Below are positions 1,933 to 41,098 of a DNA stretch of 64,000 nucleotides, piece by piece. The notes beneath the pieces were generated by a model. It worked only from the letters and a program-made list of their open reading frames with translations. It did no database searches and was not told where the DNA came from. Both the position numbers and the translations under genes were made by a program. Each line of letters begins with the position of its first letter. Positions within the stretch are counted from its first letter, which is position 1. Source of the stretch: Kondoa subrosea (lineage: Eukaryota). Location of the stretch: positions 3,723,136 to 3,787,135 of the forward strand of contig BCIN01000001.1 of the NCBI GenBank assembly GCA_039545335.1, in the 5' to 3' direction.

Positions 1933-4830
1933 TCAAGCGGAAGTCTTCTCTGCAGGTACCTTCTCAGGAATGGATTCAGACTTCTCCAAATCAGGAGTGC
2001 CTGGCGAGCTTGCTGCCGGCTTGCCCACGGTTTTGATGTTGATGTCTTTGATCAAGATTACAACGGCGAGGATGCAGATGCCACCCAGAGGGACCTGAGA
2101 CACGATTAGCTACATCGGAGAGCAGAGTGGGAAGAAGCTTACACCGATGATATAGGCGAATCGAATAGATTCGGTGAAAGCCTTGATCACAGCCGGTCTG
2201 ATGTCCGCTGGAGTAAATTCCGGGTTGTAGATATCGACAATAGATTTAGATAGACGATCATAATTGGCAGTTGGCGCATATTTTGCCAAATTTTTTCGGA
2301 ATTGTGTATTGACTACTGATTGAGCAGCAGCATATCCAACAGCACCTGTATACAGATTATTGAGAATCAATCGGAGCCGGGACGGAAGGCGACTGACCTC
2401 CCATACGCTGGAACAGAGTGCAAACGGCTGATGCTTGAGGAATTTCACTACAGGAGTACGTCAGATGATGAATCACGATATAAATATGCAGACCTACCGA
2501 GGTTTGACTGAAGCTTGAACAGCCAAGAAAACATTTTGGAAGACAGGGCCAATACCGAGAGCGACGATGACAGAGTACCCAGCATATTTGCTGTAGGAGT
2601 CGGTTTGATTGAGAGTGTACATCAGACCACCGCCTGAAACCACGAGATCAGATCAGATTTAAGTCACCTGAACATTGCACTTACCAATACAAAGGAAAGC
2701 CGGTGCGGTTGCCATAACTATGGAAGCAATCAGCGCCGGTCAGCTTAGCGCGTAAGGGCACTCACATGGCCAGTATCGACCGGTTTTCTTGACGACAACA
2801 CCAACAATGACTGAAGAGAGATGAGAAGAGATCTTAAGCCATCAGATGAAGATAACGCACTTGAGGAGAAGATGAAAGAGGCCATGAAAGGTAGAGACTT
2901 AATTCCAGCAGTGGTAGCCGAGTCGTTTTTGACAGCTTCGAAAGATTGAGCGAGGAAATAGATGTATACGACTATCGCCAGGATGTTAGAAAAGATGGAA
3001 AAGTCAAGGACCACCGACTTACACATGGCGAAGAATTGGCAGAATCCTGTAATACTTGCTCCAATGACTGTCATATTCTTCAAGAATCGTAGAGGAAGCA
3101 GTGGTGAAGCTCCCGCGCAGAAGTATTCCCAGGAGAAGAAGGCAGCGCACGCGACTGCTGAAGCCACGAAAAAGCCAATAACGTATCCGCTGTCCCAAGG
3201 ATGTGTAATACCGCCAGCGATGACAGCTAGCAACAGAAAGACGATTGCGGCAAGGAGGATAGCAGCGCCAACAAAGTCGAAGATGAAGATCCTGTGCCAC
3301 AAAGATCCGACTTTGGCAGTGCGACCGAAGGTAGCGATTTTGAATCTCCTGGAAGCTGTGTCTGAGACTGCTTGGTTCATTTGTGGAATACTAGTAGCCC
3401 AATTCAGCAAGATAAACATAGGTGCAAACAGCAAAACCTACGGAGAGCGAGGAATCAAGAACCAGATACCAAGAACGGCCAGTGCTCCGATGGGCAAGTT
3501 GATATCTGCAAAATTGTCAGCCTAAGACAGGGAGGAAAATCAAGAAACCAACAGAACACCCATCCTAGAAGCACTGATCAGCTATTGTATCTATCCTACA
3601 GACGGATGGACTCACTCCAAGTCACATGTTCTGCATGAGGATGAGTTAAAGACTGCTTCGAGTAAATTCCGAGCTTACGTGTGAATGCACCACCGAGAAG
3701 CGCTGTTGAGGATGAGTTAAAGACTGCTTCGAGTAAATTCCGAGCTTACGTCCAACGACGGAACTGATACCGAAAACACCTCCGAACTAACGACTGGATC
3801 AGTGTCAAGCACTTCAGCTTGAGATCCGACTTACTAAGCCCATCAGAAGTGGTCTATCCTCGAGACGCGAGATATCGGCAATGAGCGCGATCATTGAAAT
3901 GAACTGCAGAGAACATCAGGTGGGCGATTTGAGCTTCGAAAGGGAACCGACAATGCCAGAAGCGCCCTGATGATGGTATTAGCTGCTTAAAGCGACAAAA
4001 AGCCTTATTGAAACTCACCAAACCCGCAACAGCTCGTCCAAAGATCTCGACATTGATGTTAGGAGCAACACCGCATAGCAAAGAGCTGCGAGAACTAGTC
4101 AGCTATCTCTTTAAAGCCTCAGACGTGGACTTTGGCGTACCCAAGTTCGAAGATGAAAACGGCGATGACTGCGCCGCACCGAAGAGATTAGCTACTGAGT
4201 CATCAGATAGCGATAGGGCTCACGGTAAATGGCTTTGCGTTCGAAAATGATCAAGAGTTGACCAAAAACCAAAAGGAAGCACTGATCAATAATAATCAAC
4301 TGCGTGAAAACGAAGAACAAAGTAGATGCAACGTACGGCCTGCGTGAGCACAAAGGAGCTTACAATCCACGCCGCTTGATTGTAGCTGCGAGCGCAAACA
4401 TGAGCGAACAAACAAGTTGCTATTGACAAGAATTCTGACTTACGCGTTGAAATGGGCAGTGATGACCGGAAGAGCGGGTGAAAGAATAGTCTGGTCGATA
4501 GCAACCAAGAAGAGAGTAAGAAGCATAGCAGCGAAAGCAGTTGCCAGCTGATTACTAAGCAGTGAGCAATAGAACTTGCTGCAGACGCGCGAAACTAACT
4601 TTGCGGCCGCGAAGAACTATATCGATACCTATCAGCTACACTCTCATGTTAGTGGAATGCACCATACTCTTTGATTCATCTTGTAAATTATCATCCAAAG
4701 TTTTGGCTCGCACAGGGGCATTGCCTTCGACAGCCAGTTTTGGATCCACTGGTGGAATTTCCTCTGCTACATTTTCAGTAGGTTGAGCAGACAAGCTGTC
4801 ATTCTTTCGGTTGCGAGTGAAGAAGCCCAT
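1933..4830 (-). CDS. MFS transporter, DHA2 (14-TMS drug:H+ antiporter) type, many micro-exons
   Basis: Reconstructed motifs: SLLCGVAPNINVEIFGRAVAG, FGGVFGISSVVGPLLGGAFTQHVTW, DFVGAAILL..GGITHPWDS, PLLPLRFLKN. Multiple hydrophobic segments. Confidence 0.9.
3636..3751. repeat. 45-bp perfect direct repeat (3636-3680 and 3707-3751) forming two adjacent near-identical introns of the MFS gene
   Basis: tgaggatgagttaaagactgcttcgagtaaattccgagcttacgt occurs twice. On the minus strand each copy reads AC|GTAAGCTCGG...TTAACTCATCCTCA followed by (ACAG or TGCAG). Confidence 0.95.
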
Positions 4831-5272: not shown

Positions 5273-7165
5273 ATGATGTTGCCTTTACTTGCTCTGCTGC
5301 CTCTCTTGACTCTTGCGCTGGCCGCACAAAAATGTCCGCAGAGCGGCACGCTTTCGACATACGTCGCTGCCTATGACGGAGGCCTGCAGGATGTTGTATG
5401 GAACGATGTGACATTGCAAAACTAGTGAGCAGTTCATAGTAGTAAAGCAAGTAAACTTCTGCTCATCCAAGCTTACAGTTTCGTCATTCCAACTACGCAA
5501 GACGGCTTCAGTGTTCCTGAAGGTCAAGTTCCGCTCAAGTCTTTTGTTAAAGAAGCTCGAAGAAAGAAGGTCAAGGCCATTGCAACAATTGGTACAAAGC
5601 TCTTCTCTGCATTCAGACTTGTCTCATTGTGATGAAATAGGAGGATGGACTGGATCTCAGTTCTTCAGTGATCTGGCTGCTACAGATGCGTCTAGGTCAA
5701 AGTTTGCAAAGGTAAGGCGTTCATCAATTATCTGCTTCGCTTCTCATTATCGTATCGGATCAGCAAGTCGCTGATCTTATTCGAACGAATGGCCTCGATG
5801 GCATCGATCTGTAAGCCTATCTTAATACCTGAATGAGGTGAATGCTGAGCGGACTTTTGCAGGGACTGGTATGTTGAATATACTAAAAGCTCGATCCTTC
5901 TTCTGATCCTGTTGCAAAGGGAATATCCTAATAATGCTGGCATTGGATGTAACAAGGTTCGGCCTGAAGATACAGCCAATTATCTTCTCTTGCTTCAAGC
6001 TATTCGTGCTCAAATCGGTACTAAGAAGATTCTCTCTATTGCTATCAATGGAGCTGGCTTATTAGATGGTCAGCATCACACTTAGTAGTCATATTGTATA
6101 CTCAGTAACGAGAGCAGCCGACGGCAAGCCATTAACTGATGCCTCGGGATTCGGAGATGTCTTGGACTACCTTAGTAGGTCTGAGCCTCGCAGCATAACT
6201 CGTAGCTGAATATCTTACAGCATTGATGACTTATGACACTTGTGAGTATGGTCACAGTGTCGTGCTTGCACAAAGCTTACTTTGTTTGCAGATGGATCTT
6301 GGTCTGACACTACTGGACCAAATGACCCTCTATACGACACTTGTTCAGATCTTAAAGCATCAGTCGATACAGCGTGAGGCTTTCTCCAGATTTCTGACTA
6401 GCTTTGCTTCTGGATTTTCGTGTTATAGTGTCAAATACTGGACCAGAGCCAAATTCCCAGCGTGCAAACTTCTCATCGGCGTTCCTTCTTACTCTTACGC
6501 TTTCAACACCAAGAGCAGTACTTTGAGTCTCACTTCACCTAATGGATCTCGAAGCGGTTTATACCAGCTCAAAGAAGCTACGGTACCCAAAGGCGATGCG
6601 AATGATAAGTTTTCTACTGGAAAGGATATTTGTGGGAACGAATCCTCTGGATATGGAGGCGGTTGGACCTACAAATCAGTAAGTGTGACAATGGAAAGCG
6701 GAGACAGAGAGTTGATATGAAAAGCAGATGATCTCCGGTGGAATCTTGTCTAGCAATGGGAAGAAAGGAATGAACGGCTTTACACGCTGTCAGTCTGAAC
6801 TGATTGAGAGTCTCGACACTTGCTGAAGATGTGAAACATCAGATTGGGACAAATGCTCTCAAACGCCTTTCCTCTTCAATCCTGATACCAAGTACTTTAT
6901 CGCTTACGAAGATGGTCCTTCTACTCGTGAGAACCTACTGCATCATAAATAAGCAAAGACTAATGGTTCTTCATAGTTGCTAAAGCGAGATATGCTCGAG
7001 AAAAAGGCCTTGCTGGTCTGTAAGTACCTTTGATGTCATGCCAAAGATGAAGCTGATGGTTATGTCAGCAACGTCTTTGCCAATACTGGCTTCAATAAGC
7101 AAGTTTATGCTACTGCAGCAAACGGCTTAAAGGGCAAGAGCAAACGCTCTCTTCATCTCAGGTAG
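5273..7165 (+). CDS. Secreted GH18 chitinase
   Basis: Signal peptide MMLPLLALLPLLTLALA. Motifs IGGWTGSQFFS, spliced catalytic GLDGIDLDWEYP, LMTYD, KLLIGVPSY, and WDKCSQTPFLFNP...IAYEDG...AKARYAREKGLAG. Confidence 0.92.
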
Positions 7166-25554: not shown

Positions 25555-28315
25555 TTATTGTAGAGTTGGACTGGCTGTCAGCGACACTCGGCGAAGTAAT
25601 TTAGAAGTCCAACCGTCTGCTGGCGATGCCGTTCTTGCAGGTGGAGTCGCAGTGCCTTGTTCATCTTGACGAATACTATTGCTGGTTTGCGAGCCATAAG
25701 ACGATTCTCTTCTTCGAACAGACGGCCTTCTTGTCATTTCCGTGTAACCGCTTGCTTTGCCCTGATTCAGCTTGTCTAGAGCTTCTTTGTCTCGAGCAGC
25801 TTCGGCTTCCATTCTCGCTGCAGCCGATAAATTAGAGTCATTTAGACGAGGGCTAGTACTGTCAAAAGTAGGAATATAAGCGAGAGAACCAGGATTGGGA
25901 CTTCCGTTGACAGATATGCGGCGATTAGCCTTGACTATCTGGCTGCGAGAAGCGGCTTCAATAGGTTCGTCCTCTTCTTGTATCGGATCAGGTGATATGC
26001 TCCTTGCTGCTGCTTGATGAAGAGAAGGAGATCCACTTTGATCGTAGCCGAGCAACTGCATCTCAGCTTTGAGTCTAGCCCTAGTCTTCATATCTTCTTC
26101 ATCTTCATCAGTATACGAATGCCCAGATGCAGGCATAGAAGACGCAAGAAGCATAGGCTTGAGATTCGGCTGAGGAGGGGGCGACTTAGCCCCGCTTCCC
26201 CACAGAGAAGCTATAGCTGAGAGGGAAAGACGATTTGTTTTACGCTTCTCGTCGGGTTGCGCGACTGCTGTCGAAGTAAAAGAGGGAGCAGGTTGAGAGG
26301 CTGACAGATCAAGACTTGCGCGACGGAACATTGAACCCGCTTTGGGTGTTGGTTGAGAAGATGTGACTGTCGAGGCTATTGGTTGTGCTTTGGGTGTACG
26401 TGTGTGCTCTGGAAAAGTCGACAGCTCTCCGCCAAGGTCAGGTGTATTAGAATTGGATTTATGGTAGTCAGTCGCAAGAACCTATAAGCAGTAATGAGTT
26501 TCACTATCTGGACAAAAGATACGCGAAATTCACCTTCTCGAAGCCTTCGTGAGCAATGACGCGCTCGACAATCTTTGCAATATAGAGTGATAGTGCCTTG
26601 TTTGCGTCTCGCAAAGCCTTGACTTCCGCTCGCAGATCTTAACGGCGTACATTCAGCAGGATCCACTGATTTTTGGCGAATAGTGACTTACTATCCTCAC
26701 TCATACCCATATAAGAAGCTGTACTTGATTCTCTACCATGTTGAGCTCTCTTCATTCTGAGCTGCTCGTCTTCCGCCTCATCGGCAATGTCATCATCCGC
26801 TCTGTCCAGTTCCGCAGCTAAATCAATGCCAACAGTAGATACTTTGTTTCCAGCAGCAGGTCTAGCATGTTTTCTTCTTCTCTGACCTGTCGTATCCGCT
26901 GCAACTGCACCGCTATCCAAAGTACCTCGACCGGACGATTCCAAATAACCTGAATCTGCTTCTTCTTCAACACCGTCTTCTTCCAAAACGCCTAGCAGAG
27001 GTGAAGAAGGATAGGTATTGCGTCTCGATAGGTCAGGGGAAGAGCGAGCAGAAGATTCATGATCCCAAGTTTGACCAAATATGCCTTGACCTAGAATAGC
27101 TCCGGAAAGAGTTCGTTCGCCCAAAAGGAGTTGAAAGGAATCGCTTTCGTCTATAAGATTAGCGTTGATGCGTTTCAATTCAGCTAATTCGTCATTGAGA
27201 AGATTAGTTCGCCGGAGAAGTTCATGATTGGAAGATTGCAGAGCGTCACGATCTTGTTGAACCATATTGAGAGTAGATTGGAGTTCACTGATTTCCTCTA
27301 TAGAGGAAGAGAAGTCCATTCGAGGTGAAGAAGGATAAGCTGGTACAAGAGTCACTGTAGGTTCAGCATCGGATGCTAATTCTTCATTATCTGAGTCACT
27401 AGGAGCTGTCTCCGCTTCAGAAGAGCTTTCATATTCCTCGGTAGGTCCAAGTCGAGCAGGACGGTTCTTTGACTTGGTGACCTCTTCTCTTTCGACTACA
27501 GAAGATTGACCAGAAGTGAGCTTCTCTATCCTTTGCTTCAGTCTTGTTTCTGTTTCTTGCCATAATTTGCGTTCTTTGTCTAAAGCAGCAATCTAGAGAA
27601 TGCAAATCAGTCATTGGTACGACCATTGCCTTCAAGATTGCTTGTCTACCTCATCAATGTTCCTCTTTTCCCCTTCTCGCGCCTGCTTTTCCATTTCAGA
27701 TACTTGAGCTCGATACTTATCTGAAGCAGCATAAGCGTTTGCTAGTTCAGACTCCATTCTTGCTTGATCTGAATGAGCGTCTTGTAATTTCGCTTCAGCG
27801 AGTTCCATATCTTTAAGTGTATGATTATGCGTAGTTGTCAATTCTTCCAGATTATGATTCGCTAATTGCAGATTTGACAAAGTCTTTTCAACAAGAATAA
27901 TTGAATGAGCAGGGTTCGCTTTTCACGATATTGACAACTCAATTGAGCTCACCTCATTATGTTCAGCTTTCGATCTTCTCAAAGCCGCAATCAGAACTTC
28001 TCTTGAGCTCCGTGTATATGCTTCAGAATCATCCTCGTCTTCCATGTTTATGCTGTCCAAGCTTTGATCCCCTCTCTTGGTTGATTCTTTAGCTGCTGCG
28101 TTAGATTTGGTTCGTCCAGGAGGTGCAGGTTTCCGATTGACAGCTAAAGAAGGACTGGGACTAGCAGAAGTAGCTCTGTAGGAAGTCTTGCCTGTTGAAC
28201 TCATCTTGCTGTGACTGCTTGAAGCGTTGCTTGTCCTTGATGAGACTGGTGATGATCCAGACAGGGATGAGGAGATAGAGGAGCGGCGAGAGCTTGGTGT
28301 AGAAATCACAGACAT
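25555..28315 (-). CDS. Coiled-coil protein with FIP-RBD (Rab11-binding)-like segment
   Basis: Ser-rich N-terminus and long coiled coil; LIDESDSFQLLLGERTLSG; spliced LRAEVKALRDANKALSLYIAKIVERVIAHEGFEKVL. Confidence 0.7.
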
Positions 28316-28741
28316 AGAAAAGAGCTTGTGCTCCAAGATGGAAGCTTTTCAAAACACGAAGCGATAGAGAGGCCAAGCGAGGCTAGTATCAAGCGAGTGG
28401 TATAATAATGTGCTCGACTACGCTCTAGCAGCTGCTGCAGAGGCTTCGAGCGATTCGAGGTCAGGGTCCAAAAACAACAAAGGTTTCCCATTTCGCGACG
28501 GTGCTGGAGCTGCTCATATCAACGAGTCGCAGCAATTGAAGCAGACATGCAGGCTATTACAACCGTTCAGTCATCACAAAGGTCTCATGCGCGTTACAAT
28601 CTTTGGTCTCAGGACACCAGCAAAAGGTCAATGATTCTGCTCAATAAACTGCCCTCCATTCGCTGCCAGCGCTTCTTGGATAGTCTTTCAACTCATGCGG
28701 CATATATGTACAATGAATATTACACATTCATGAGTTTGACT

Positions 28742-30335
28742 CTAGCTTCTGAAATCAGATGCTGTATCCGCCGTTAGCTATCTTTCGCGATATCGAGATA
28801 AGACACTCACAGACAAGCAGCCTTTGCTTCTCCAATGCTTCTGAAAGCGCCGCACTTGACGGTCTGTTGAGAATAATAGAAAGTGGACAGTCTTTCGCTA
28901 CTCAAGGGGTCAATAGAGCACTTTCAACTGCAAACATGACATACTCCATGTATTCCGATAATTCGACAATTTGCCGATGTCATTGTCGATCATCACATGC
29001 GGAATTCCTAGAATCAGAGACACGATGTGTCCTATTCTACGGTTTCAGCAATACGTTTCGGTCTCAAGAGTACAAGACTCACCATGTAGCCGATCCAGCA
29101 TCACAATCTCACCGCTTGCAAGCCACCGTGCCCCTTGCATGAATCTGAGCCAGGCTGCTTGTCTGTATTCACTCTTGCCCAAAATCATGTCAGGCGCCAA
29201 GTCGAAATCAGTCCAATCTCCGTGCGCAATTGCACTGGCGTTCCAAGAAGGTCCCATTTGCTTCAGTAAACCGGAAAAGTAGGCTTCTGAATCGCCACCA
29301 GCCCAACTGCTCCAATCTGTCTTCTCTGCATCGCCTCGTTCGAAGACCAGAAGATCGTTGGCGGGTTTACCAAAGCGTTTCAATAGTTCTGGCCTGTTTC
29401 TGCAGCAGAAGCTTGTTAAGTCTCGGAGCAAACCGAGATCTGAGTGATAAGCGCACCCAAGAGCAAAGACAGTGTCCGGTAACATTGTTACTTTGGTTTC
29501 CAGAGGTGCAATATGTTCTTGAGCAAACTTCAGCGACGGTATATCTCGCACAGCAATTTGCATGTCGGTTGCTCGCTTGACCTGGTCTAGAAATTCCGAA
29601 ATAGGTGTACCTGGACCAAGGGATTTGTCGACGAAGTGAATACTTTGCGGAAACCAGCGAATAGCTACTTTGGTACCGAAATCTCTGAGGACTGCCATCT
29701 TCAACTCTTGCTCAGCCGGATATAAATCTCCTAAATTTCCACCGCCAGTAATGACTATAGCCGCGCGACCTAGTGAAATCATATATTCGATGCTTGATGG
29801 CCGGTAATCGTGCATTCCAGAAGCGACGTAGTCCACACCAATGCCCAAAGAGGCCAAAACGAGTTCTTCCGCGCACCAAATCGCGCTATCTCCTAGATGC
29901 TTGACATCAGCAATAAATTCGCTTGTACGCGAAGGCAAAGTACCTTTGTTTGCGTGATTCGCTGGGATCACACAGTCAGAGCAACGTCGTGGGTCCCAAT
30001 GCATTGGACTCACGGTAACCAATCAGAGCGACTCTCTGTACTCCCTTCAAAGCATCCGCATAATGGTCGAAAAGAAGGGCTCTGTGGCTTTCGACCAGAT
30101 TCCGGCAGGTTTGGGAAGCGAGTCGATTCGCAGACAAGTTCGCCTTATCGTGCTGCCCAGAACTTGACATTTTCTGATATAAGAATCGCGAAGAAGACTC
30201 CTGATTCCTTGGATAGATAGGTGCAAATCTTCCTAACACCAGCCCGAGAAGAAGAACGAGCAATAGAGCATTTCGGCGCGCAATGCCGTGACTGCTTGAA
30301 ACCGCACCTTTGATGCAAGAGAGATCTGAAGACAT
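28742..30335 (-). CDS. Polysaccharide pyruvyltransferase (Pvg1-like), copy 1, type II membrane protein
   Basis: N-terminal anchor RRNALLLVLLLGLVLG. Spliced ALIGYPNHANKGDSAIWCAE, GGGNLGDLYP, FPQSIHF, VRD, LPDTVF, and DRLHGHIVSLILGIPHVMIDNDIGKLSNYRNTW. Confidence 0.9.
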
Positions 30336-30871
30336 TTAATGAAATAAGCGTTACAGGACAACAGGGCCATGAGCGACGCGCAGGCAAAATCGTGAAACTC
30401 AAAAGATCCGAAAGGTCCACGGTGCGGGAGATAACAACATTTCGGTTTTTCGGCCGCCTGCTTGGCATTGCATCGTCGATCGCGTCAAGATCTGTTGCCG
30501 CCTGTCAGCTATCCGCAGTAAACACGCCCCAGCAACGAGCCACTTACTGGTGATAGACACGCTTTCACTGCATCCGAGCATGACATCAACTGTTTGTCCA
30601 TTCAGTACTTCCTAATGGTTTGAATGTCAAGCGGTTCTATGCTGGTCACCCTTTTCAACTTGTCAAGAAAGCCACACTCAAAGTCATATCGGCGCATACG
30701 TTCTTTCGACGACATGCGTGTCGCTTACGCTCTTCCTTTCCGTTCGGCAAGCGCATGCAGGTGAACATGACTGTAGGGAAGCGGCGGAAGCAGACACACA
30801 GGCTACAACCAGCCGTCCAATGCATCATGACGGTATTATGCGCATGCAATCTTGGGCAGAATGATAGAAGG

Positions 30872-31992
30872 TCAATTCTGCTCGATAATCTGTACTCCAT
30901 TCGCTGCGAGCGCTTCTTGGAAAGCTTTAATGATAGCAGGACTGCATCGCGGAGTCAACACGGCGATCTTTCTTCGACATAAGGGGAGAAACTCACTCCC
31001 TCTTGACATCAATGTATGCAAGCACGCGCGCGGCAACATCGGCGTGATTGATTTGTGACCAGGTGTTGAAGTCAATCATACTCTTGTTCCGAAGACTGTC
31101 ATAGATCACATCTTCTACGGGTTGAAGGTAGCCTGCTACCGCTTGTCTAGTTTGACCAGGAAAAATTACTTCAAACCAGTCTCTGTAGAAATGGACGATC
31201 GTAATCAGTCTGGACTGATAATAAGAACTCGACATCACTCACTGTTTCAAAGTGAAGATAGAAAGTGCTGTACCAAACAATGTTCTCTCACTTGAACTGC
31301 GAGCCGAATCTAGAGAAGCCTGAACGGTCGCGTCAGTTTTGTGCATAGTTCACGAATAAGACACAGCATACATGCTTGAGCGAGATCTCCAAAGCTCTAA
31401 TGGATTTCTGATCCCTTGCATCGTCCAATCGGAACAATTCTGCAACAGCTCCTCTAGTCTGGACCGTCCTTCTCAAATACCCATCCATAGTATCTTGATC
31501 TACTAAACAAGCTTTCTCATCCGCTTTCCAAGCCGAAATACTCATTTCTTCTGCGTTTGGCAAATGTTCTTTACTTGCCAGAAACTGATCAGAGAAGGAA
31601 GAAAGCAAATTGGACAGCTGATGTTGATGAGGATGGAATTGTTGAATCAAGTGTAGTTCAACATTGTCTCTCTGCTGTTCGTCTAACAGAGTTTGATACT
31701 TTGCTTTCAATTCAGTTAAGCGATGTTCCAGGCCAAGAATGTCTAAAGCAGTCGGTGGGATGGAGCAGAGGTCTTCGAAAGCTTTGCACAGGTAGCTACG
31801 CATAGAAGAGACTTGTTCTTCGTGTCGAGGCATTCGAGGTAGACTGCGAAAGATGAAATCAGCACTGTACGCATACGTATGACATCGAGCTCACTTGATC
31901 ATACTCTTGAGAAGCTCAAAGCTAGGCTGCAAAGGAGCTGGAGGTGCTAAACTTAGCAGGGAAAGGTTTGGCGAGCGAGGCATGGAAGACAT
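30872..31992 (-). CDS. Hypothetical helical protein (spliced)
   Basis: ORFs 31333-31833, 30993-31238 and 30872-31075 are joined by GT..AG introns into one frame (MSSMPRSPNL...QDWFEVIFPG...PAIIKAFQEALAANGVQIIEQN*). No family recognised. Confidence 0.55.
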
Positions 31993-32278
31993 TATTGGGG
32001 TCAAAAGGCTCGCAAGTACACTGCGAACGATTTGTAACGCCAGTATAGTGGTTGTTAAAGGTCAGAGCAACAGGCAGGATAGAAGGCGTGCAGTAAAGCC
32101 AGCAAGATGGAACATTCCAATATTTGCTAATAGATGACATCCTCTCTCAAACGATGTGGACTGGAAGGGAGAACGGAATCCTGAGTCAGATGTAGTCCTC
32201 TATGCCGGGTCAGCATGCTGACGATAAATAGTGATCAAGGTCAAAGTCAACAGCAACCCATTGCAATGAGATTGCATT

Positions 32279-34714
32279 TCAGCCAGCCAGCGGCAACCCA
32301 CAAACATCACAGTCCGTAGCTCCTGGAGCATTCTCGAAAGTACAATGCGGGCAAGCCTTCATCCCCCCTGCGCCAGCAGAAGGCGTAGCCGATCCTGAAC
32401 CTGCTGCGCTAGGTTGATCCATTGACATCTCGTTGAGTAGTTCAGGTGGGATCTCTTCAAACCCATCGTTCCTGTTGGAAGCAACTGTTTTCGAGGCTGT
32501 CAAGGGAAATCGACAAATCAGAATAAAACCTGAAAAGCAGCTCGATTGGCCTAACCTGCTGCCTCCTCTGCGAACGTGACCATCGTCTGCCACCCTGAAG
32601 AGTTCGTAAGCTTCCTTACTGTTTTTGCAAGTACGTCATCTTCCGCTTTAGATGCCAGAGCAACATTGAGGAAAGCCTTGAAATCGCTCTGTCCATCGAG
32701 GCACTCCCAATTAGTATCATACTAGCTAGATGCTCCCATGACGTACCTCTTCAATCAGACCACCAACCATTTCCATTCTAATGAACGAAAGCAAATGCCA
32801 ATCCGAACACCAAGCTGCTAGTTCTCGATAAGCTTCCAGATCGCTTTGCTTTCCTTTGCCCTTCGAAGTGATCTCTATTCCCTCCGATTCGAAAGTAGAG
32901 GAAGAAGAAGGTAGTTTGGCATTGAGTTCGCCAACTCGTTTAAGGACAGCTTCGGGTTTCTGATCTTGGAAGCCTTGCCGATTTTCTATGGTAAACGGAG
33001 TACTGGATGAGGCTGAAGCGAAGAAAGGTGACGATACATCAGGGAAACCATGTGTTAACTTGATCAGACATCAGCTCGCTCTCGTCGATATTAAGAGGGC
33101 AGACAAACCGAAACTAGAAGGTAGTCAACAGGGAAGCAAGGTTTCGCGCTCTCCTTGACCATAATCCCATAATCATTTTTGTACCGATAAAAGACATCCG
33201 GAACATAGCGTTTGACCAAAGGCTTCACACCACTTTCATGTTGATCCATAGGTGGATCGTCTTCCTTCTTCACTCGTACTACTCCAGGATTGACACTCGC
33301 TTCTATCAGATCAGCTGAAGTGAGTGCCAGAGCTTGATCTGAAGCTTGATAGGCTTTCACTTCAATTTCTCCCTTTTCATTCCCGGTGACCACACAGGTA
33401 ACGAATTTGGAAGAATATTTCCCAGATCTGCAGAATTTTGTAGGGTTCGGACGAAGTGACTGTAGTCGAGCGGAGAAAATGGTTTCGAGTGAGGAAAGGA
33501 AGAAAGAATCGGCATGTCTTTTACAGACGACCGCGCCAGCTTGTTTGGATTCCGTATCTTGTACAAGATCGGTATAGATTAGACCAACAATCCGAAGTCC
33601 ACACGACTGAGCCAAAGCTTCGACTTTCTCTAGATCTGGCCATTCCATATTCACTTCCAGTCCGTCTGTATCCCCATGCTGAGGTGGTTCGTGAATAGCT
33701 TCCACAACAGCTTTGACACCCATCGGTACTAGCTCGTAAGGTTCGTATCTTCCAATCAGGTAACCAAAACGTTGAGCACCACCATTCCTTCTCCAGAAGT
33801 CAATGAAAGAATCAATGATGCTGGATGTAGCATATTCAACGTGGTCTACCATTCGATACGATTGCAGTTGAAGAGTGATTGCTGAAGGCTGGCATTTGCT
33901 GCAAATGCTCGCTGGCCAAGAAGCATGAGCCCCAGATGGACAAGGAATCTTGACGCTGTAATCTAATTCCTCCAGAGGTGGAAGATAAGATGATTCGGAC
34001 CGCTTGTTGACGGAAGAATCAACTTTGCGCAGGTAGGAGTGGAAGGAGAGATGCTTGATCTTCTTTTCTGCTTGATATTTCTCGTCGAAAGGCTGTCAGG
34101 ACAAGTCCGGTGACAGTGAGCAACTATCATAGCACAAGTATTGCCTACCCACCTCTAGTGGCATACAGTAGTCACACATTGCTTTATCGCCATGCTTGCA
34201 GAAGTTCAGATCTTTTGACCGCGGTATCTTTCCATCTCTTGCTTCCCAGTATGTATCAACAGGATCTTCAATCACTGCTGCAGGCTTTGCGGAGCTACTC
34301 GATTGCTGCGGTACAGCTGCTGCACTCGTGGAAGGTGCTGGTTCGTCGACATCTATTGCTGTCGAATCCTGCCATGCTACAAAGACCAGATCTCCATGAC
34401 TGCATACACAGATATAAGCACTAATCCATTAACATTGCAGACTGAGGAAACTCGCCTTATGCCAAAGTTCGAGATGGGACCTTTGAGGCCAGCTACCAAT
34501 GTTTCACCACCTCTGGGCTGATTCGAGAAGGAGATAGATTCTCTAGCAGCATTAGGAGCTATCTCTTGCACCTGTTCACTGTGTATTAGCTTCTATAATT
34601 CGCCTGGCTGGACCTTCGAGCGCTCACAACTTTGTCAACCAAGGTCTGCAGATCATCTGTCGCTTCCACCTGATACCTGAATGTCCCTTCCTTGCATCTC
34701 ACTCGCACTAGCAT
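32279..34714 (-). CDS. NPL4: Nuclear protein localization protein 4 (Cdc48 cofactor) with C-terminal NZF zinc finger
   Basis: MLVRVRCKEG, CKHGDKAMCDYCMPLE, KHLSFHSYLRK, QRFGYLIGRY...AIHEPPQ, FLSSLE, FPVDYLLV, and CPHCTFEN..CDVCGLP. Confidence 0.97.
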
Positions 34715-34947
34715 TGCTCTACAGTCTGGGTATCAAGACTTGCGCTGGTGGTTCGTGTCAAACGATGACGCGGCATTACATTCGAGATGGATTTGCTTCT
34801 GCCACTTACTTCAGCTACAATTGCCGGTAGCACAGTGTTGATGCATCGCAGAGACTTTAGGGCCATGTGTGAAATGCAATTCTGTAATACATTTACAAAA
34901 CGAGAAATGTACATATCTAGGCAATGCATGATTATTATTACCGTCAT

Positions 34948-36541
34948 CTAGCTCCTGAAGTCCGGTGCTATGAAACTTCTGAGTCTGATATATGGGAATG
35001 GGAGAGAAAAACACTCACATATGAGCAACCTTTGTTTTTTAAGCGCTTCCGATATAGCTGACCGCGATGGCTTAACGATGACAGCCAGCGGACAATCTTT
35101 TGCTGTGCAATGATCGTATCAGTTCCTCAGAGCAAACTCCAATCTCAGAGACTTACTCCATGTATTTCGATAATTCGATAGTTTGCCAATTTCATTGTCG
35201 ATAATAACATGCGGTATACCCATGATAAGAGATAGAATATGCCCTGGATGCTTCATTAGCCAGTGACTGAGGAGAAAGAGAATTGCAACTTGCCGTGCAG
35301 ACGATCTAACAGCACGACTTCACCGCTCGCTAACCATCGGGCACCTTGCATGAATCTAAGCCAAGCTGCTTGCGCGTATTCGCTTTTCCCCAAGATCTCT
35401 TCTGGTTCAAGATCGAAATCTATCCAATCACCCGTCGAGACAGCGCTTGAATTCCAGGACGGTCCCATTTCTTTCAGCAAGCCGGAAAAGTAGGCTGCTA
35501 AGTCTTCTCCTGCCCATTGATCCCAGCTTGTTCTCTCTGCGTCAACTCTTCGGAAGACCAGGAGCTCATTTGCAGGTTTGCCGAAGCTCTTCAGTAGTTC
35601 TGGTTTATTCCTGACAAAACAATAGATTTGAGCTTCTCGTACGCAGACCAGAATGAGAGACGGATCCCACCCCATAGCAAACACAATATCCGGAGTCATG
35701 GTTACTTTCGTTCCAAGGGGTGCAATGTACTTTTTAGCAAACTTCAACGAAGGAATGTCTCGCACAGCAATTTGCATATCTTTGGCTCGTTTGACTTGCT
35801 CAAGGAAGTTCGACAGTGGTGCACCTGGATTGAGAGATTGATCGCCAAAATGTATGCTTTGCGGAAACCAGCGAACAGGCAGTTCAGTAGCGAAATCTTT
35901 CAGTACTTCCAATTTGAGACTTTGTTCTTCTGGATAGATGTCGCCTAGATTTCCACCTCCGTGAAACACAAGAGCAGCTCGACCCAAAGAAGCCATTTGG
36001 GTTATCTTGGATGGCTGATAGTCGTGCATACCAGAACACACGTAGTCGACGACAATGCCCAAACTCGCGAGAAGGATCTCTTCGGCGCACCAGATCGCGC
36101 TGTCTCCTGTATCTTGGAGTCAGCACCAGTGTCGAAACAGAAAAAAATGGAAAGTGCCTTTATTCGCATGATCGGCTACAAGGACACGGATAAGCGATTG
36201 ATCGCACAATGTTTTGACAACTCACGATAACCAATTAGAGCGACCCGTTGGACTCCCTTAAATGCCTCCGCAAAGTGATTGTACAGAAGCGCTCTCTGGC
36301 TGTCTACAACATTTCGACATCGCTCCGATGCTGATGGGACCGACGCCAGGTCCGTCCGATATAGAGCTGAACTAGCTGTTCCTTTGTATAAAGACCGTAT
36401 AGCAGATCCATCTTCTCCAATAGGCCAAGGTGCAAATCGTCCGAGTAAAAGTCCAGCGAGCACGAGCAGGATAGCGTTTCGACGCGTTATTCCGTGACTG
36501 CTTGACACAGCACTCTTCATCCAAGCCATTGACGACGACAT
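34948..36541 (-). CDS. Polysaccharide pyruvyltransferase (Pvg1-like), copy 2, type II membrane protein
   Basis: N-terminal anchor RRNAILLVLAGLLLG. Spliced PDHANKGDSAIWCAE, HGGGNLGDIYP, FPQSIHF, VRD, TPDIVF, and DRLHGHILSLIMGIPHVIIDNEIGKLSNYRNTW. Same exon structure as copy 1. Confidence 0.9.
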
Positions 36542-36655
36542 TGTGGTTGATTCAAGACAAGAGCAGTATTCCAGTATTATGCCGACGCGTTCAGGTTCCG
36601 ACTCATGGAGATTTTTCTTGCTCTTGGCTTCCAACAGTCATCTCTAAATACAGCA

Positions 36656-38042
36656 ATGAGCCATCTTCTAGTGATAGGGACGCTCAGCGTACATCTGAGT
36701 GTTGCATCTGCTGTAAGTCTCATGTCGATCACAATTTGAAAAGAATGGAATCACGAGCGGCTTTGACAGGTTACGTTGCTGAACAAAGCGACGCTCAACC
36801 TTCTCTCAGCTCCTACTCTCCTACTCATCACTTCTGTCTCTATAACGCTCTTCATATTTCGCCTAGCAAGCGCGTTGGGGCTCGTTACTTTACCAAGCAG
36901 GACAACTTTTCAGGTCCGCAAGGAACGTGCTGTCTCGTTATCGTGCTCACGAGAGAAACAGGATATTCGCGCCCATGGTCTACTATCGTTCTTGCAAGTG
37001 GTATCCCTTACTTCGAAGACATTCTGTCTTAAAGTATGTTGACCATTTCTCCGAGGTCCACGTTACTAATCGGCAATGTCTTCAGCTCGTGGATGGTACG
37101 CGTAGCGCTCACGTTACCAGACAGTTGCTGATTGCTGCTCTCCAGCTTCCTTCTACCAAGTAGCGCGAAGTCTACTGTTGCCCTTCACAGTCGCCCTTTC
37201 CTACTTCATTCTTGGCTCAAGAACAACGTTAACAGCGAATTTGGGTCTTCTTGTCATCTGCAGTGGTTTCTTCTTTGGCGTATCGTTAGATAAAGTAGCG
37301 AACACGAGCGGGTCTGGCGTTCTTGCCGGAGTGCTTTCAAGTTTAGCAACAGCGCTATATGTAGTCATAATGAAGCGAACAACAACCAAAGCGAAGAGCG
37401 CAAGTCCGACAGAGAAGAGCAAGACAGGATCGGATTTCTGGGCCGTAGCTTACTACACCAATCTCATCTCGCTTTGCTTCTTGATCGTCCTACTCCCTTT
37501 TACCGGAGAATTAGGCTACTTCTTCTCCGCGAATGGTACAGTCAAGAGGGATTTTGTAGATGCATTCGTGAATAGTGGAAATTTAAGGAAGTATGGACAA
37601 TTGACCGCGTGGTCTGTAAGTTTATCCCTTCTCCTCAGAAAGGAGACACTCACGAGAATCGCTGCAGGGAATATGCTTTGCTGCGCTTCAAGTAGTCACG
37701 TTACTTCAAGTGAAATTGACTTCGCCGATAGCGTGAGATTGGAATGTTTTTCTCTGGGAAGGAGTTTTTGACTTTTCAAGCAGACACATGGTTTCAGCTG
37801 CTGTTCGAGGCATCTTCCAGACTGGTCTTTCGCTTCTTGTCTTCCCAGCCGAAGCAAAAGCATTTAGTCGATCTCGTCAAATCGGAACAATACTAATTGT
37901 GGTTGGAAGCGTGATCTATGCTTGGGACGAAGCGATAGGCAAAGCAAGCAAGAGTGCACCCAGAAAGGAGCAGCATGATCCGCTGACAGACAAGGAAGTT
38001 ATTATTCCATTGCTGGACGAGAAAGGCTCACACGGTGCTTAA
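36656..38042 (+). CDS. Nucleotide-sugar/TPT-family (SLC35, GDP-fucose-transporter-like) Golgi transporter
   Basis: Spliced TLLNKATL, TFCLKLVDASFYQVARSLLLPFTVALSYFIL, GVLAGVLSSLATALY, YYTN, LTSP..THMVSAAVRG, and GSVIYAW. About 10 TM segments. Confidence 0.88.
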
Positions 38043-38296
38043 TCACGTCTCATAGCCATCATCATTATTCCACAGTGCATTTATATACCATAGACGGTTT
38101 GCTCCATACAACTCATGCTGTCTTCATATAATCATCCATATTCAATTAGGCTGTGCAGTGTGACTTCAAGTCCAAGGGTTGTCCAATTCCACCGAGCATA
38201 CAAATACGCGTTGGGATCGACCTGGCCGCGCGCGTTGACACGGCAAGAAATCTCGACTTTTGCCCTCGACCGGTCTTTTTGACCTTAGCTTTAAAG

Positions 38297-39453
38297 ATGC
38301 ACTATCGCTTCTTCAGAACCAGAATGTCGCGTTCTGTACGCGTTGGTTGCCTTGCAGCTCTCTGCTTCGTCGGCTATGCATATTTCTACGCGTCTCCACC
38401 TGCTCCAACTCTTTCTCAAAACACTTTCGCTGCAACTTCTCCCGCTCTACTTTCTCTGAACAGGAAACTCCAGTCGCAATGCAAAGCTTCAGCTACGCAT
38501 CATCATGATCCTTCAACAGTAACGCCAGCATTCTTGATTGCAGCCCATGATAACGAAACTATTAACGGCCTAGCAGAACTTTTGGAAGAAATGTATCATC
38601 CAGAAGATGTGTTTGTCGTGCATATAGACGCCAAAGTCCCACAAAGTACCTTTGATGATGTAGTCTCGGCTGTGCCTTCGACATGCACAAATGTCCGCTT
38701 CGTACAGCAGCGGATAGGCGTTACTTGGGCAACCTGGTCTATTGTGGAGATGGAGCTACGGATGTTGCAAGAAGCTATGCGGATGGAAGTACATTGGGAT
38801 CAAGCTATGTTCCTGGATGGTTCAAGTTGGCCTTTGACGACTCGCAACCGAAGACAAGAATGGTTGAAATCATTACCTGCCGGATCAAGTAGTTGCACTG
38901 GAGGTTGGCCAACCCCAATATGTAGCGTCAATAGCGAAGAGGGACAATGCAAGAGAACTCCTGCTAGGTGCATAGCGCCGGATTGTTCTCGTATGACCAA
39001 GACGCCGAATGGTTAGTGCTTACCCCTTTCACTTCAGCTGAATCGTCATTGAAGTCCAATTCTGGTGCAGGCGGTCGAGTTCTATGGGGTACACAATGGG
39101 TGCGGCTGTCGCGTCAATTTTCTGAATACCTACTTTCCGATTCTATATCTAAACAATGGATCGATTTCTTCCAAGAAACAGTCGTCCCTGACGAACACTT
39201 CTTTGCTTCCGTCCTCTATGCTTCACCTTTGGTCAATACTGCAACTTTCGATATACACATTTATGTCGATTTCGATCATTCAAGCAATTGCAGAAGTTAT
39301 CCTAATGCTAGACCTGGATCAAGTCCTTGTTACCTTGGAGAAGGGGAACTGGAGGAGTTGACAGTCAATCAACCTAGGATCTTTGCACGGAAATTTTATG
39401 CCGGCGATGCCATCAAAGGGAAGATCATGGATAGGGCCAATAGAGCAGTATAA
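38297..39453 (+). CDS. GT14 (Core-2/I-branching family) glycosyltransferase, type II membrane protein
   Basis: N-terminal TM VGCLAALCFVGYAYFY; AFLIAAH, YHPEDVFVVHIDAK, NVRFV..RIGVTWA, GTQWVRLSRQFSEYLL, PDEHFFASVL, and FARKF. Confidence 0.88.
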
Positions 39454-39968
39454 GGAAGGAAGAACTGACTATACACAATCATAGTCGGGAAAAAGGAGAA
39501 GATTGCAGAGGTAAGTAAACATGGTCTTTGCACCTTGCAGTGTATTCTGATGATGCACACGCGCATAGAAATACAGTTTTTCGAACAATGGCGCGCAGCT
39601 TTGACACTCGCCTCAGGCGTTCTCTTTCTGACTCTCCTTTCCGATGCGCAGTTCTAGTTGGCATTTGGGTTTTGGTTGAAAGAAGGCCTCATCGCGTGAT
39701 CTCAAGCGAAAGGAGCGGCAGGCTGGAGCTGGAGCGAGGCTCGATTGTCTATCGGAAAGGCAGAGCATCGGGATGTCTCGAATCAGATTGATGCAGGCAT
39801 GGCAGAATACAGGCAGTGACGGAATCGAATGCATATGGGCAAGTATGGATGTAATAGTATAGACTAATATAGACTAACATGTACGTGCGCACAAAGAAAA
39901 CAGAATAGGAAAGGCTTGTACAGAGTCGTGAACCTGCTCGCGATTCGCGAAGGGGTTGAAACGCAACA

Positions 39969-40374
39969 ATGAACACTCTTTCCAGGAGAGAGGTGCATTT
40001 GCAGAGCTTCAGAAAGATCATAACTGACTTGTAAGAGCAGGATGAAGCGCTCATGAAAGAACTGAAATCGGAAGCTTTGAAGAGATGTGATGTGGAAGTC
40101 AAGGGTGAAAGCCTTCTACACTGCGGTCCAGTGTATGCTGATTCATAGTTGGATGCAGACTTTTCTGCCTGCGCAGAGGGCCGTACAATGTCGGTAGCTT
40201 GGGCGTGCCGAGAGAAGTTGGCGATCATGCAAAATTGTATGGCAAAGGAGTGAGCTTTCATTCGCTGGCATGTGCTCGGCTACTGATTGATGTTGTAGAC
40301 TTACCGATGATGCTATCGATAATGCAAGAGAGGCGAAGATTGCTTCAAGAGCTGCTCCGTTAGGGAGAGAATAG
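39969..40374 (+). CDS. CMC1: Twin CX9C cytochrome c oxidase biogenesis protein Cmc1-like (4 exons)
   Basis: Spliced MNTLSRREDEALMKELKSEALKRCDVEVKDFSACAEGRTMSVAWACREKLAIMQNCMAKE... with two C-x9-C motifs. Absent from the ORF track. Confidence 0.88.
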
Positions 40375-41098
40375 ATCGTGCAAATGCCGCTGGATGCTCG
40401 AGAGCGTAGACTATATGCACTGCTGGTTGTGTGGCCTGCCAGTAAATTTGTCGATAGGTGAGAACTTTCAAATCAAATGCGAATCAGGGCTAACGATGTC
40501 TTCAAATCAGTGAAACATTGCAATGTACATAGCACCCTTCATGCATCAAGAACATCACGCCGTATTTCTCCTCTTTTTCTCTTTCGATTGTGCTTTAGCA
40601 TGCTGGCGATCCGACAGGCTGCAAATTTTCGAGGCAATGAACGTCGCCTTCGTCGCAATCTTCCTATCACCAGGAAAAACAGCGAGATCGAATCGTGGCT
40701 ATGAATAATTCAAGCTAGGGCTCAAGAGCTCACGTGAATGGAAGCGCTCAACATATATGAGGTCGAGTACTGCTCATATTAGGTAATCGTGGAGAATCCA
40801 TGTGCTTTTGTCGCAATGGTGCAAGACACAAGCCAGGTACATCTCTAATCCGTGTGCATGTACAGGCGAGATCAAAGCTTCATGTCCAACAGTGGGACCG
40901 ACTCTGAGCATGATTCAGTCTGCTGGCGACTGAACGCGACCGCAAGTCGAGCGTCTTCTTGCAAGACAGTGAGGCTATATGCCATACTTTGCACCTTCCG
41001 ACGAATTTGTCCCCCGACAGTATCTATAAATGAGCGTGCTCCAGCGTACTGAAAGTAAATAACTGAATCTCGTCCGCCAACAGGCAAATGCGATACCC

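Follow-up and report, generated by a model that had tools for sequence, protein, structure and literature searches.

Our analysis of the window (the whole 64,000-nucleotide stretch of Kondoa subrosea DNA, whose numbering is used throughout) revealed a real and non-random cluster of two Pvg1-like ketal-pyruvyltransferase genes (PvT-A and PvT-B), a TPT/SLC35-family transporter gene and a gene for a GT14 glycosyltransferase. We consider it plausible but unproven that the cluster is a compact module modifying a secretory-pathway glycan in one shared pathway, and put the probability of this reading at roughly one half. The locus is thus a testable candidate for a pathway that would give a surface glycan a negatively charged pyruvate cap.

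Layout of the locus

Hand-curated spliced models yielded four intact genes: PvT-A (28742..30335, minus strand), PvT-B (34948..36541, minus strand), the transporter (36656..38042, plus strand) and GT14 (38297..39453, plus strand). Their frames are open after splicing (428, 425, 358 and 365 aa, respectively), and their stop codons end at 28742, 34948, 38042 and 39453. The gene identities, orientations and coordinates proposed in the initial annotation are thus upheld by Pfam matches and spliced models. PvT-B, the transporter and GT14 are consecutive and together occupy 4506 bp. PvT-B and the transporter point away from each other, their start codons separated by 114 bp (36542..36655), a spacer that may act as a shared bidirectional promoter, and the ATG of GT14 lies 254 bp beyond the transporter stop. 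The distance from the PvT-B stop to the PvT-A start is 4612 bp and accommodates NPL4 and one further gene, an interruption which, like the present lack of an intact transporter or GT14 beside PvT-A, counts against a shared pathway. In the rest of the window, a Pfam scan of the 70 other ORFs of at least 110 aa returned housekeeping-type families, a weak GH18 fragment and an AATase; the three families of the cluster were absent among these ORFs, and the sole sugar-related match was the GH18 fragment, below cut-off. As the surrounding ORFs are of housekeeping type, the glycan genes stand out.

In fungi most glycosylation genes lie scattered, and adjacency by itself carries little weight. It is possible, if less probable than a shared pathway, that the genes became neighbours by chance or through local duplication history and act on different glycans: the transporter could, for example, be a diverged GDP-fucose-type carrier for other fucosyl- or mannosyltransferases, and an unrelated O- or lipid-linked glycan could be the target of the GT14. 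The occurrence of three secretory glycan genes within 4.5 kb, with none such among the 70 other scanned ORFs, argues against this explanation. Three consecutive genes of this kind are clustered beyond chance, for which our figure, itself a rough inference, is ~1e-5 per PvT gene (assuming ~10 SLC35, ~100 glycosyltransferase and ~12,000 genes).

Two pyruvyltransferase paralogs

Both PvT genes are predicted to encode Pvg1-like type II ketal-pyruvyltransferases and have seven exons, at 30335-30014, 29961-29944, 29892-29457, 29399-29083, 29031-28945, 28897-28811 and 28761-28742 in PvT-A and at 36541-36226, 36175-36158, 36106-35671, 35610-35294, 35243-35157, 35102-35019 and 34967-34948 in PvT-B, with all six intron positions in common. 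The introns of PvT-A are all GT-AG and 47-57 nt long; introns 2 and 4 of PvT-B have GC donors at sites where PvT-A has GT, and the first of these, GCACTT, fits the usual donor poorly. That PvT-B depends on the splicing of two GC-donor introns counts against the shared pathway. One could picture a partly non-functional cluster, in which PvT-B, GT14 or the transporter are unexpressed or mis-spliced remnants and PvT-A alone is active, and for which these two of the six PvT-B introns, along with a transporter copy already decayed beside PvT-A (described below), would speak. We regard it as very improbable, since all four reading frames are open once spliced, the catalytic motifs are intact and GC donors have a usual form of their own (GCAAGT). 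The divergence of the paralogs also argues against it: PvT-A and PvT-B are 72% identical (304/424 aligned residues), and a dN of 0.19 with a saturated pS of 0.74 gives a dN/dS of ~0.06 over 424 codons. Purifying selection on both paralogs is thus strong, and has maintained them over the greater part of their history.

Pfam model PF04230 (PS_pyruv_trans) matched ORF 29045-30022(-) of PvT-A with 31.8 bits and ORF 35256-36119(-) of PvT-B with 32.5 bits (cut-off 25.3). The main exon of PvT-B matched the sequence of the Pvg1 structure (PDB 5ax7) at E 2.2e-22, and its N-terminal exon could be aligned with residues 9-45 of that structure, Cys included; P0006, a named member of the PvT clade, reached E 1.8e-60 against 5ax7. 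D106, R217 and R337 are the proposed catalytic residues of Pvg1p, with suggested roles in holding PEP and the acceptor hydroxyl, and C68-C373 its disulfide pair, in the excerpts of the Pvg1p study at hand (PMC4872226). With Pvg1 numbering taken as 5ax7 chain index + 53, the catalytic equivalents are the D of NKGDSAIW, the R of AVRD and the R of DRLHG, all kept in PvT-A and PvT-B; C68 aligns with the Cys of ERCRN and C373, via P0006, with that of KDCPL, and both equivalents are likewise kept in PvT-A and PvT-B, forming what is, from sequence only, a putative disulfide. PvT-A carries the motifs NKGD, AVRD, DRLHG, QTCRN and KDCPL. The match to 5ax7 and the conserved residues corroborate the Pvg1 relationship suggested at the outset: judging by these alignments PvT-A and PvT-B are true Pvg1 relatives, and they are predicted to transfer pyruvyl groups from PEP to a sugar. 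The Pvg1p residue His168, which influences the choice of acceptor in Schizosaccharomyces pombe, is Glu in PvT-A (YPAEQ), PvT-B (YPEEQ) and P0006; it is an acceptor-site residue that sets specificity and does not define the family.

PvT-A groups with PvT-B as its sister in a quick tree (SH-aLRT 87), and a split with SH-aLRT 100 separates 12 eukaryote-like rows plus P0011 from 36 others, bacterial-named where named. Pvg1-like bacterial exopolysaccharide ketal-pyruvyltransferases (Sphingomonas; EpsI/EpsO/PssK by their source names) share PF04230 with the locus, and the Sphingomonas proteins match the PvT-B exon at ~30% identity and 86-88 bits, similar to Pvg1 at 83 bits. This bacterial group, however, falls on the opposite side of the split (36 rows versus 13) from the locus PvTs, which differ from the bacterial enzymes in having intron-containing genes and a predicted N-terminal anchor in the membrane. 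Topology was read from a simple hydropathy scale, not a dedicated predictor, and on that scale N-terminal hydrophobic segments fit the type II-like anchors that had been suggested for the pyruvyltransferases and GT14: residues 24-40 of PvT-A (hydropathy 2.41), a segment of PvT-B (~1.85) and residues 16-32 of GT14 (1.71), with basic residues preceding the anchors of PvT-A and GT14.

The transporter, its relic and its cargo

The transporter gene has seven exons (36656-36712, 36770-36913, 36962-37033, 37086-37095, 37146-37615, 37668-37732 and 37784-38042), among them a 10-nt microexon. Queried as exons and not as spliced protein, it scored under the PF03151 (TPT) cut-off of 30, with 20.3 bits for ORF 37106-37771(+) and 19.7-20.3 bits for single exons. 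Over its full length the spliced model is collinear with P0121 (E 2e-40), a TPT protein that passes PF03151 at 50.4 bits and is the nearest named basidiomycete member, at an identity of only 31%. Along the 358 aa run ~10 separate hydrophobic regions (simple hydropathy scale), and the nearly invariant positions of the family are, by eye, kept: Y, Q, R, P and T in 'FYQVARSLLLPFT', TSP..H and Q. Among 1.84 billion representatives, HMMER found 152 relatives at E<=1e-3; the one close relative was a 70%-identity fragment, and the next best had E 6e-13. By these comparisons the transporter is strongly diverged and lineage-restricted within its family.

A decayed transporter 5' end lies head-to-head upstream of PvT-A (30530..30754, plus strand). 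This relic spans the start codon region (ACG in place of ATG), exon 1, intron 1 and most of exon 2. Its local alignment with 36651-36873 has 143/233 identical columns and a score of 35, which none of 480 window chunks from both strands reached (mean 11.0, sd 1.5, max 17), and in tblastn 13 of 19 residues of transporter exon 1 were identical (E 0.007). Later transporter exons were looked for beside PvT-A and none was found; the PvT-A flanks are now without an intact transporter or GT14. Since the decayed 5' end occupies the matching position upstream of PvT-A, the head-to-head PvT-transporter pair was in place before the PvT gene was duplicated. Together with the relic, the 114-bp divergent spacer marks a long-standing pairing, which argues against chance adjacency, whereas the retention of PvT-A under purifying selection with no intact transporter nearby favours it. 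The relic is also fresh internal support for the PvT-transporter linkage.

A family profile of the transporter built from 20 sequences and run against PDB gave 88 and 74.7 bits for GDP-mannose transporters versus 65.8 bits for the plastid-type phosphate translocator 5y78, a moderate margin; it matched 9s35 and 5oge at E 6e-24 and 7e-20. The nearest Atlas cluster of P0203, a transporter relative, is 'GDP-fucose transporter 1'. Where 5y78 reads '...GNTIKRVII', the family profile aligns '...saarGvlq' and the locus transporter reads 'SAAVRGIFQ'; the Lys-Arg pair in the late helix of the translocator, which we take to bind the substrate phosphate, is Arg-Gly in the locus transporter, the first basic residue being kept and the second replaced by Gly. 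The transporter is in these respects SLC35C1/GDP-sugar-transporter-like, and it shares the TPT/DMT fold family with the SLC35C1 GDP-fucose and Vrg4 GDP-mannose transporters. Because of the GDP-sugar-type profile, the relatives and the missing Lys-Arg pair, a nucleotide sugar appears to be a more likely cargo than PEP. As a separate candidate, a plastid-type phosphate/PEP translocator was disfavoured, the best profile fit being to GDP-mannose transporters and the Lys-Arg pair lacking its second residue; the Pet-like supply of PEP entertained in the initial annotation was not supported in that form, on the same evidence and on that of the GDP-fucose-type relative. S. pombe Pet1p/Pet2p are likened to plastid-type PEP translocators, in contrast to the locus carrier, a comparison made via 5y78. 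The mismatch between the transporter family and the PEP supply role known in S. pombe counts against a shared pathway.

The same module could nevertheless employ a GDP-sugar-type SLC35 carrier that was recruited as a Golgi PEP importer independently of Pet1p/Pet2p, the GT14 donor entering via other carriers. We judge this unlikely, as the profile favours GDP-mannose transporters over the phosphate translocator by the scores above and as the pair presumed to contact phosphate is Arg-Gly here. Several observations would nonetheless suit PEP import: the transporter is head-to-head with a PvT and not with GT14, the pair was duplicated together, the strong divergence of the transporter would fit a change of substrate, and PEP is a specific need of a lumenal PvT, as far as the excerpts of the Pvg1p study go (PMC4872226). 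For basidiomycetes, Golgi carriers are described in Cryptococcus, namely Uut1 for UDP-GlcA and Uxt1/2 for UDP-Xyl, in the portions of the reports at hand (PMC5790919, PMC5773217); they are set beside the locus transporter by description only.

GT14 and the proposed pathway

The GT14 (Branch domain) gene has two exons (38297-39011 and 39071-39453) and one 59-nt intron. PF02485 (Branch/GT14; cut-off 23.4) matched ORF 38150-39016(+) with 58.3 bits and ORF 38968-39453(+) with 30.8 bits; by exon, it gave 58.9 bits for exon 1 (profile 2-115) and 31.3 bits for exon 2 (profile 163-228). Exon 1 matched the core 2 beta-1,6-GlcNAc transferase (C2GnT) 3otk at E 1e-9 and exon 2 xylosyltransferase 1 (6ej7) at E 2e-4, and PDE (residue 278) and ARKF (residue 344) align with PAE and ARKF of xylosyltransferase 1. 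The P-D/A-E motif presumably holds the catalytic Glu, and the basic pair of ARKF presumably binds the UDP diphosphate in the metal's place. PF02485 over both halves and these motifs confirm the original GT14 assignment. The two-part Branch domain and type II anchor of C2GnT (3otk/2gak) and xylosyltransferase 1 are also found in the locus enzyme, which, in contrast to solved GT14 enzymes, has no Xylo_C or other extra domain. A word-indexed search returned three relatives, all unnamed (42-62% identity), and exon 1 ends at the same '...TPNG' in GT14 and relatives P0122-P0124.

In the shared pathway that we favour, the PvTs, the transporter and GT14 would all serve a single glycan within the Golgi lumen. 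GT14, presumably inverting and UDP-sugar-dependent, would add a beta-linked residue and so create or extend the acceptor; the carrier would import an otherwise limiting substrate, most likely a nucleotide sugar because it resembles GDP-sugar transporters, and less likely PEP; and PvT-A and PvT-B would form an anionic cap by attaching the pyruvate of PEP to a terminal sugar as a ketal. With Glu in place of Pvg1 His168, the PvTs probably recognise their acceptor in a different setting from the fission-yeast Gal-beta-1,3 epitope. Known GT14 enzymes use UDP-sugar donors, with which a GDP-sugar cargo would be mismatched, and this counts against a shared pathway. Adjacency of functionally unrelated genes gains from the same point: the GDP-sugar-like carrier has no obvious partner when GT14 uses UDP-sugars and the PvTs use PEP. 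A more elaborate version of the module, which we hold to be slightly more doubtful than PEP import as such, is a self-contained basidiomycete cassette in which a sialic-acid-like anionic cap would be placed on a surface glycan by Glu-for-His168 PvTs, at a beta-linked, GT14-added sugar that is not a fission-yeast pyruvate acceptor, with a re-tooled, strongly diverged GDP-sugar-type SLC35 carrier as PEP importer. If true, Golgi PEP transport would have arisen here independently of Pet1p/Pet2p.

The closest relatives are similarly near across the three families (65-66% identity for PvT, 70% for the transporter and 61-62% for GT14), which is compatible with, but no proof of, possible co-occurrence in related species. 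A metagenome scan for the linkage gave a single locus, a spurious match to a phage-like 1154-aa ORF. The initial annotation held that no such pathway was described in basidiomycetes, and the literature searched, as represented by partial records, agrees: it contained no paper linking pyruvyltransferases to Basidiomycota, no pyruvylated glycan recorded for basidiomycetes and, among the titles matched, no pairing of pyruvate with a mushroom or fungal polysaccharide.

The S. pombe PvGal pathway, which comprises Pvg1p, the PEP transporters Pet1p/Pet2p and the GT31 galactosyltransferase Pvg3, offers one of the closest comparisons. Golgi Pvg1p relies on dedicated transporters, and a lumenal PvT specifically needs a PEP supply, according to the excerpts at hand (PMC4872226, PMC6801904; the latter point from PMC4872226). 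The logic may be likened, on those excerpts, to that of the locus, in that a PvT in the lumen depends on a dedicated transporter and on an acceptor-making glycosyltransferase. Pvg1p, a Golgi type II enzyme, belongs to one family with the locus PvTs and has the Asp/Arg/Arg residues and the cysteines in common with them, whereas the partner glycosyltransferase is a GT31 in S. pombe and a GT14 at the locus. The PvGal pathway genes are dispersed in the S. pombe genome; at the locus, by contrast, the genes lie side by side, with two PvT copies.

Gene models and arrangement of the locus

The window, with a GC content of 44–48% and numerous short introns, is eukaryotic DNA. Stop-to-stop open reading frames (ORFs) in the region 27000–41000 were surveyed with Pfam, and gene models were built by inspecting the sequence manually for splice sites and were then checked by script. 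The two paralogous Pvg1-like pyruvyltransferase (PvT) genes, PvT-A (28742–30335, minus strand, 428 aa) and PvT-B (34948–36541, minus strand, 425 aa), each comprise seven exons and six introns of 47–60 nt, whose positions are identical between the paralogs. The third, in-frame intron is a true intron, because four PvT relatives (P0001–P0004) read straight through its site. In the curated models both genes contain an 18-nt exon coding for '(P)xHANKG'; these exons (36175–36158 and 29961–29944, both on the minus strand) place the conserved HANKG immediately before the catalytic Asp. GC donors are predicted at introns 2 (GCACTT, 36157–36107) and 4 (GCAAGT, 35293–35244) of PvT-B, both on the minus strand, and PvT-A has GT at both sites; two GC-AG introns within one gene are unusual.

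The TPT/SLC35-family transporter gene (36656–38042, plus strand, 358 aa) has seven exons, one of them 10 nt long (37086–37095), and the gene for the Branch-domain glycosyltransferase GT14 (38297–39453, plus strand, 365 aa) has two exons separated by one 59-nt intron, its first exon ending at '...TP(N/G)G/S' as does that of the GT14 relatives P0122–P0124. Automatic gene callers would probably miss both the 18-nt PvT exons and the 10-nt transporter exon. Where transporter exon 3 ends (37020–37050, plus strand), an alternative frame reads 'LKYVD', the motif found there in the basidiomycete relative P0121, and the spliced model reads 'LK|LVD' via the microexon; this match is probably a coincidence, and an alternative splice form at this point is conceivable.

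PvT-B and the transporter gene are divergently oriented, their start codons lying 114 bp apart, and 254 bp separate the transporter stop from the GT14 start. The initial annotation had described a clustered set of two pyruvyltransferases, a transporter and a GT14, and both the gene identities and the clustering are real: PvT-B, transporter and GT14 together occupy 4506 bp, the distance from PvT-A to PvT-B is 4612 bp, and the stop codons of the curated models fall exactly at the positions 28742, 34948 and 39453 that it had given as gene limits. A scan of the 114-bp spacer for bacterial-type promoters and terminators found none, the model being a bacterial one that is not meaningful for a eukaryote. 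The stretch between the PvT paralogs holds unrelated, housekeeping-type content, namely an NPL4 gene (32279–34428, minus strand; PF05021, PF05020 and a zinc ribbon) and a 185-aa ORF (31336–31890, minus strand).

Pyruvyltransferase paralogs and their duplication

The polysaccharide pyruvyl transferase profile PF04230 matched both genes above its cut-off of 25.3 bits (31.8 bits on ORF 29045–30022 and 32.5 bits on ORF 35256–36119, both on the minus strand), and the main exon of PvT-B matched one PDB sequence, Schizosaccharomyces pombe Pvg1p (5ax7, E = 2.2e-22), in keeping with the Pvg1-like character first ascribed to the pair. The N-terminal exon of PvT-B aligned to 5ax7 positions 9–45, and both PvTs have an N-terminal hydrophobic segment, which in PvT-A directly follows basic residues. 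In Pvg1p (numbered as 5ax7 chain index + 53), according to PMC4872226, D106, R217 and R337 are the proposed catalytic residues, H168 limits acceptor choice, and C68–C373 is a disulfide. Our alignment shows that the equivalents of the three proposed catalytic residues are kept in both paralogs (D106 as the D of NKGDSAIW, R217 in AVRD and R337 in DRLHG), as are the two cysteines (C68 in ERCRN/QTCRN, C373 in KDCPL). The equivalent of H168, in turn, is Glu (YPEEQ in PvT-B, YPAEQ in PvT-A), likewise in the Leucosporidium relative P0006, which itself matched 5ax7 with an E of 1.8e-60.

A word-indexed search with PvT returned 314 proteins at E ≤ 1e-5 among 2070 candidates, the best 120 of which were listed. 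Among these 120, the four best are unnamed (54–66% identity), the best named one is from Leucosporidium creatinivorum (38%), and from about rank 12 down all named ones are bacterial (Sphingomonas, or the source names EpsI, EpsO and PssK). The bacterial proteins are ~30% identical to the PvT-B exon (86–88 bits), and Pvg1p itself scores about the same (83 bits). A quick maximum-likelihood tree (IQ-TREE) was computed from 49 sequences, that is, the two window PvTs, P0001–P0010 and every third of P0011–P0119, leaving out 73 other listed matches. All 12 sequences labelled eukaryote-like, a label that rests not on taxonomy but on anchors, on read-through of the intron and on a single fungal name, were separated, together with P0011, from the remaining sequences by a branch with an SH-aLRT of 100, and PvT-A and PvT-B were sisters (SH-aLRT 87). 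In a 2019 review, Pvg1p sits on the margin of a minor Ascomycota clade, and the surrounding sequences are mostly bacterial. When metagenomes were scanned with an alignment of six PvT sequences, 125 pattern matches were obtained, and the only one to pass tblastn, locus L001, turned out to be spurious: PvT, transporter and GT14 are all absent from it, and its 1154-aa ORF (3–3467, plus strand; GC 37%), which has a phage tail-fibre-like look, shares only 'GDWTDFDL'.

PvT-A and PvT-B are identical at 304 of 424 aligned residues (72%), with a dN of 0.19, a pS of 0.74 (synonymous sites saturated) and a dN/dS of ~0.06 over 424 codons. The duplication is old, and selection has retained both copies. The region upstream of PvT-A carries, on the other strand, a pseudogene relic of the transporter 5' end (30530–30754, plus strand), which is homologous to 36651–36873 and extends from the start region through exon 1 and intron 1 into exon 2, most of which it covers; its start codon is ACG, its exon 1 peptide is identical to that of the transporter at 13 of 19 residues, and later transporter exons were not found at this site. 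With scoring suited to ~60% identity, 143 of 233 columns are identical and the local score is 35, a value reached by none of 480 control chunks of the window (mean 11.0, sd 1.5, maximum 17); stricter scoring retained a 35-base core only, for which the score of 36 against 34 for the best control chunk looks marginal. The duplicated unit therefore comprised a PvT in head-to-head orientation with no less than the 5' portion of the transporter gene, and this arrangement is at least as old as the PvT duplication, whose synonymous sites are saturated. The relic shows a segmental duplication of the PvT–transporter pair, after which one of the transporter copies was lost.

Substrate of the carrier and identity of the GT14

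The TPT profile PF03151 scored 20.3 bits on ORF 37106–37771, a single ORF of the spliced gene, under its cut-off of 30. The spliced model aligned over residues 3–355 to P0121, a named basidiomycete protein from Flagelloscypha sp. (31% identity, E = 2e-40) and the only match in a word-indexed search of 1503 candidates. HMMER with the 156-aa exon 5 against 1.84 billion representatives yielded 152 matches at E ≤ 1e-3, 7 at ≤ 1e-10 and 0 at ≤ 1e-30, the best being an 89-aa fragment (70% identity) and the second best having an E of 6e-13 (39%). For P0121, the nearest Atlas clusters consist of 'sugar phosphate transporter domain' proteins from Basidiomycota, and a second transporter relative, P0203 (E = 2.5e-5 against the window exon), has the chordate 'GDP-fucose transporter 1' as its nearest cluster (score 0.99).

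Against the PDB, the exon alone had 0 matches and P0121 only chance-level PTS matches (E ~0.3). A profile of 20 sequences (P0121, the window exon and 18 of 150 listed HMMER matches picked for near-full length, 322–436 aa) retrieved 11 PDB sequences at E ≤ 10, headed by the GDP-mannose transporters 9s35 (6.1e-24, 88 bits) and 5oge (6.9e-20, 74.7 bits), which outscored the plastid-type translocator 5y78 (3.4e-17, 65.8 bits); CMP-sialic acid and SLC35B1 carriers were far weaker than 5y78. The 'KR' pair of 5y78, which is presumably phosphate-binding, lies over 'rG' of the family, and the window transporter reads SAAVRGIFQ. Given the profile ranking and the Arg-Gly at the KR site, the carrier has the appearance of a divergent member of the GDP-sugar group of nucleotide-sugar transporters, not of a PEP/phosphate translocator. 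Similarity of this kind does not specify a substrate; a nucleotide sugar is more likely than PEP to be what it would import, and these comparisons do not support the role of PEP supplier that had been considered for it. Carriers that bring UDP-GlcA and UDP-Xyl into the Golgi are known from basidiomycetes.

The assignment of the third gene to a membrane-anchored GT14 stands. The Branch profile PF02485 matched ORF 38150–39016 (58.3 bits) and ORF 38968–39453 (30.8 bits), exon 1 matched core 2 GlcNAc-transferase (3otk, E = 1e-9) and exon 2 xylosyltransferase 1 (6ej7, E = 2e-4). PDE (278) aligned over PAE and ARKF (344) over ARKF of xylosyltransferase 1, motifs that we take to be catalytic, and residues 16–32 form a 17-residue hydrophobic segment (mean hydropathy 1.71) with a basic stretch just before it. 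Only three relatives were found among 118 word-index candidates, at 62, 61 and 42% identity, all unnamed.

A shared pathway or chance adjacency

Detailed knowledge of ketal-pyruvylation on eukaryotic glycans is confined to fission yeast, and information on eukaryotic pyruvylation is called scarce in the 2019 review. In the literature outside subscription journals, no report was found on pyruvyltransferase with Basidiomycota, the search for pyruvylated with basidiomycete led to PMC11150766, whose accessible text touches the topic only through the title of a cited S. pombe Pvg3 paper, and to a paper on microbial glycolipids, and the matches listed for pyruvate ketals held no pairing with mushroom or fungal polysaccharide; a search for GT14 in fungi gave only general mycology. 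The locus is a Pvg1-type system with other partner families, physical clustering and an altered acceptor-site residue, Glu in place of H168, in all of which it differs from the S. pombe system.

The best single reading, to which we assign a probability of about 0.5, is a shared pathway ending in a pyruvate-capped Golgi glycan. Chance adjacency of genes without a shared pathway is a serious, less probable rival. Relatives of similar closeness were found by sequence searches for the PvT, transporter and GT14 families alike. The closest named relatives and the intron pattern make a basidiomycete origin of the window probable. If the shared pathway is true, an anionic glycan not reported before would be made in another phylum of fungi, and the locus points to the enzymes involved, their likely glycosyltransferase partner and a dedicated carrier. 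It makes testable whether basidiomycetes have pyruvate-capped glycans and how Golgi substrate is supplied for them, all components being carried on a 4.5-kb piece amenable to deletion or transfer as one block, and Pvg1-type enzymes with a different acceptor pocket would be of use in glyco-engineering.

PF04230, PF03151 and PF02485 had no Pfam match among the 70 other window ORFs of at least 110 aa, 17 of which matched other families (BUD22, CS, Pkinase, Utp11, F-box, ATG16-like, Sec10, DUF726, seipin, UCH, Mito_carr, a GH18 fragment and AATase). Far from the cluster lie the GH18 (chitinase-family) fragment (5412–5771, plus strand), which is weak at 24.9 bits and under the cut-off, and the alcohol acetyltransferase-like ORF (PF07247; 695–1786, plus strand).
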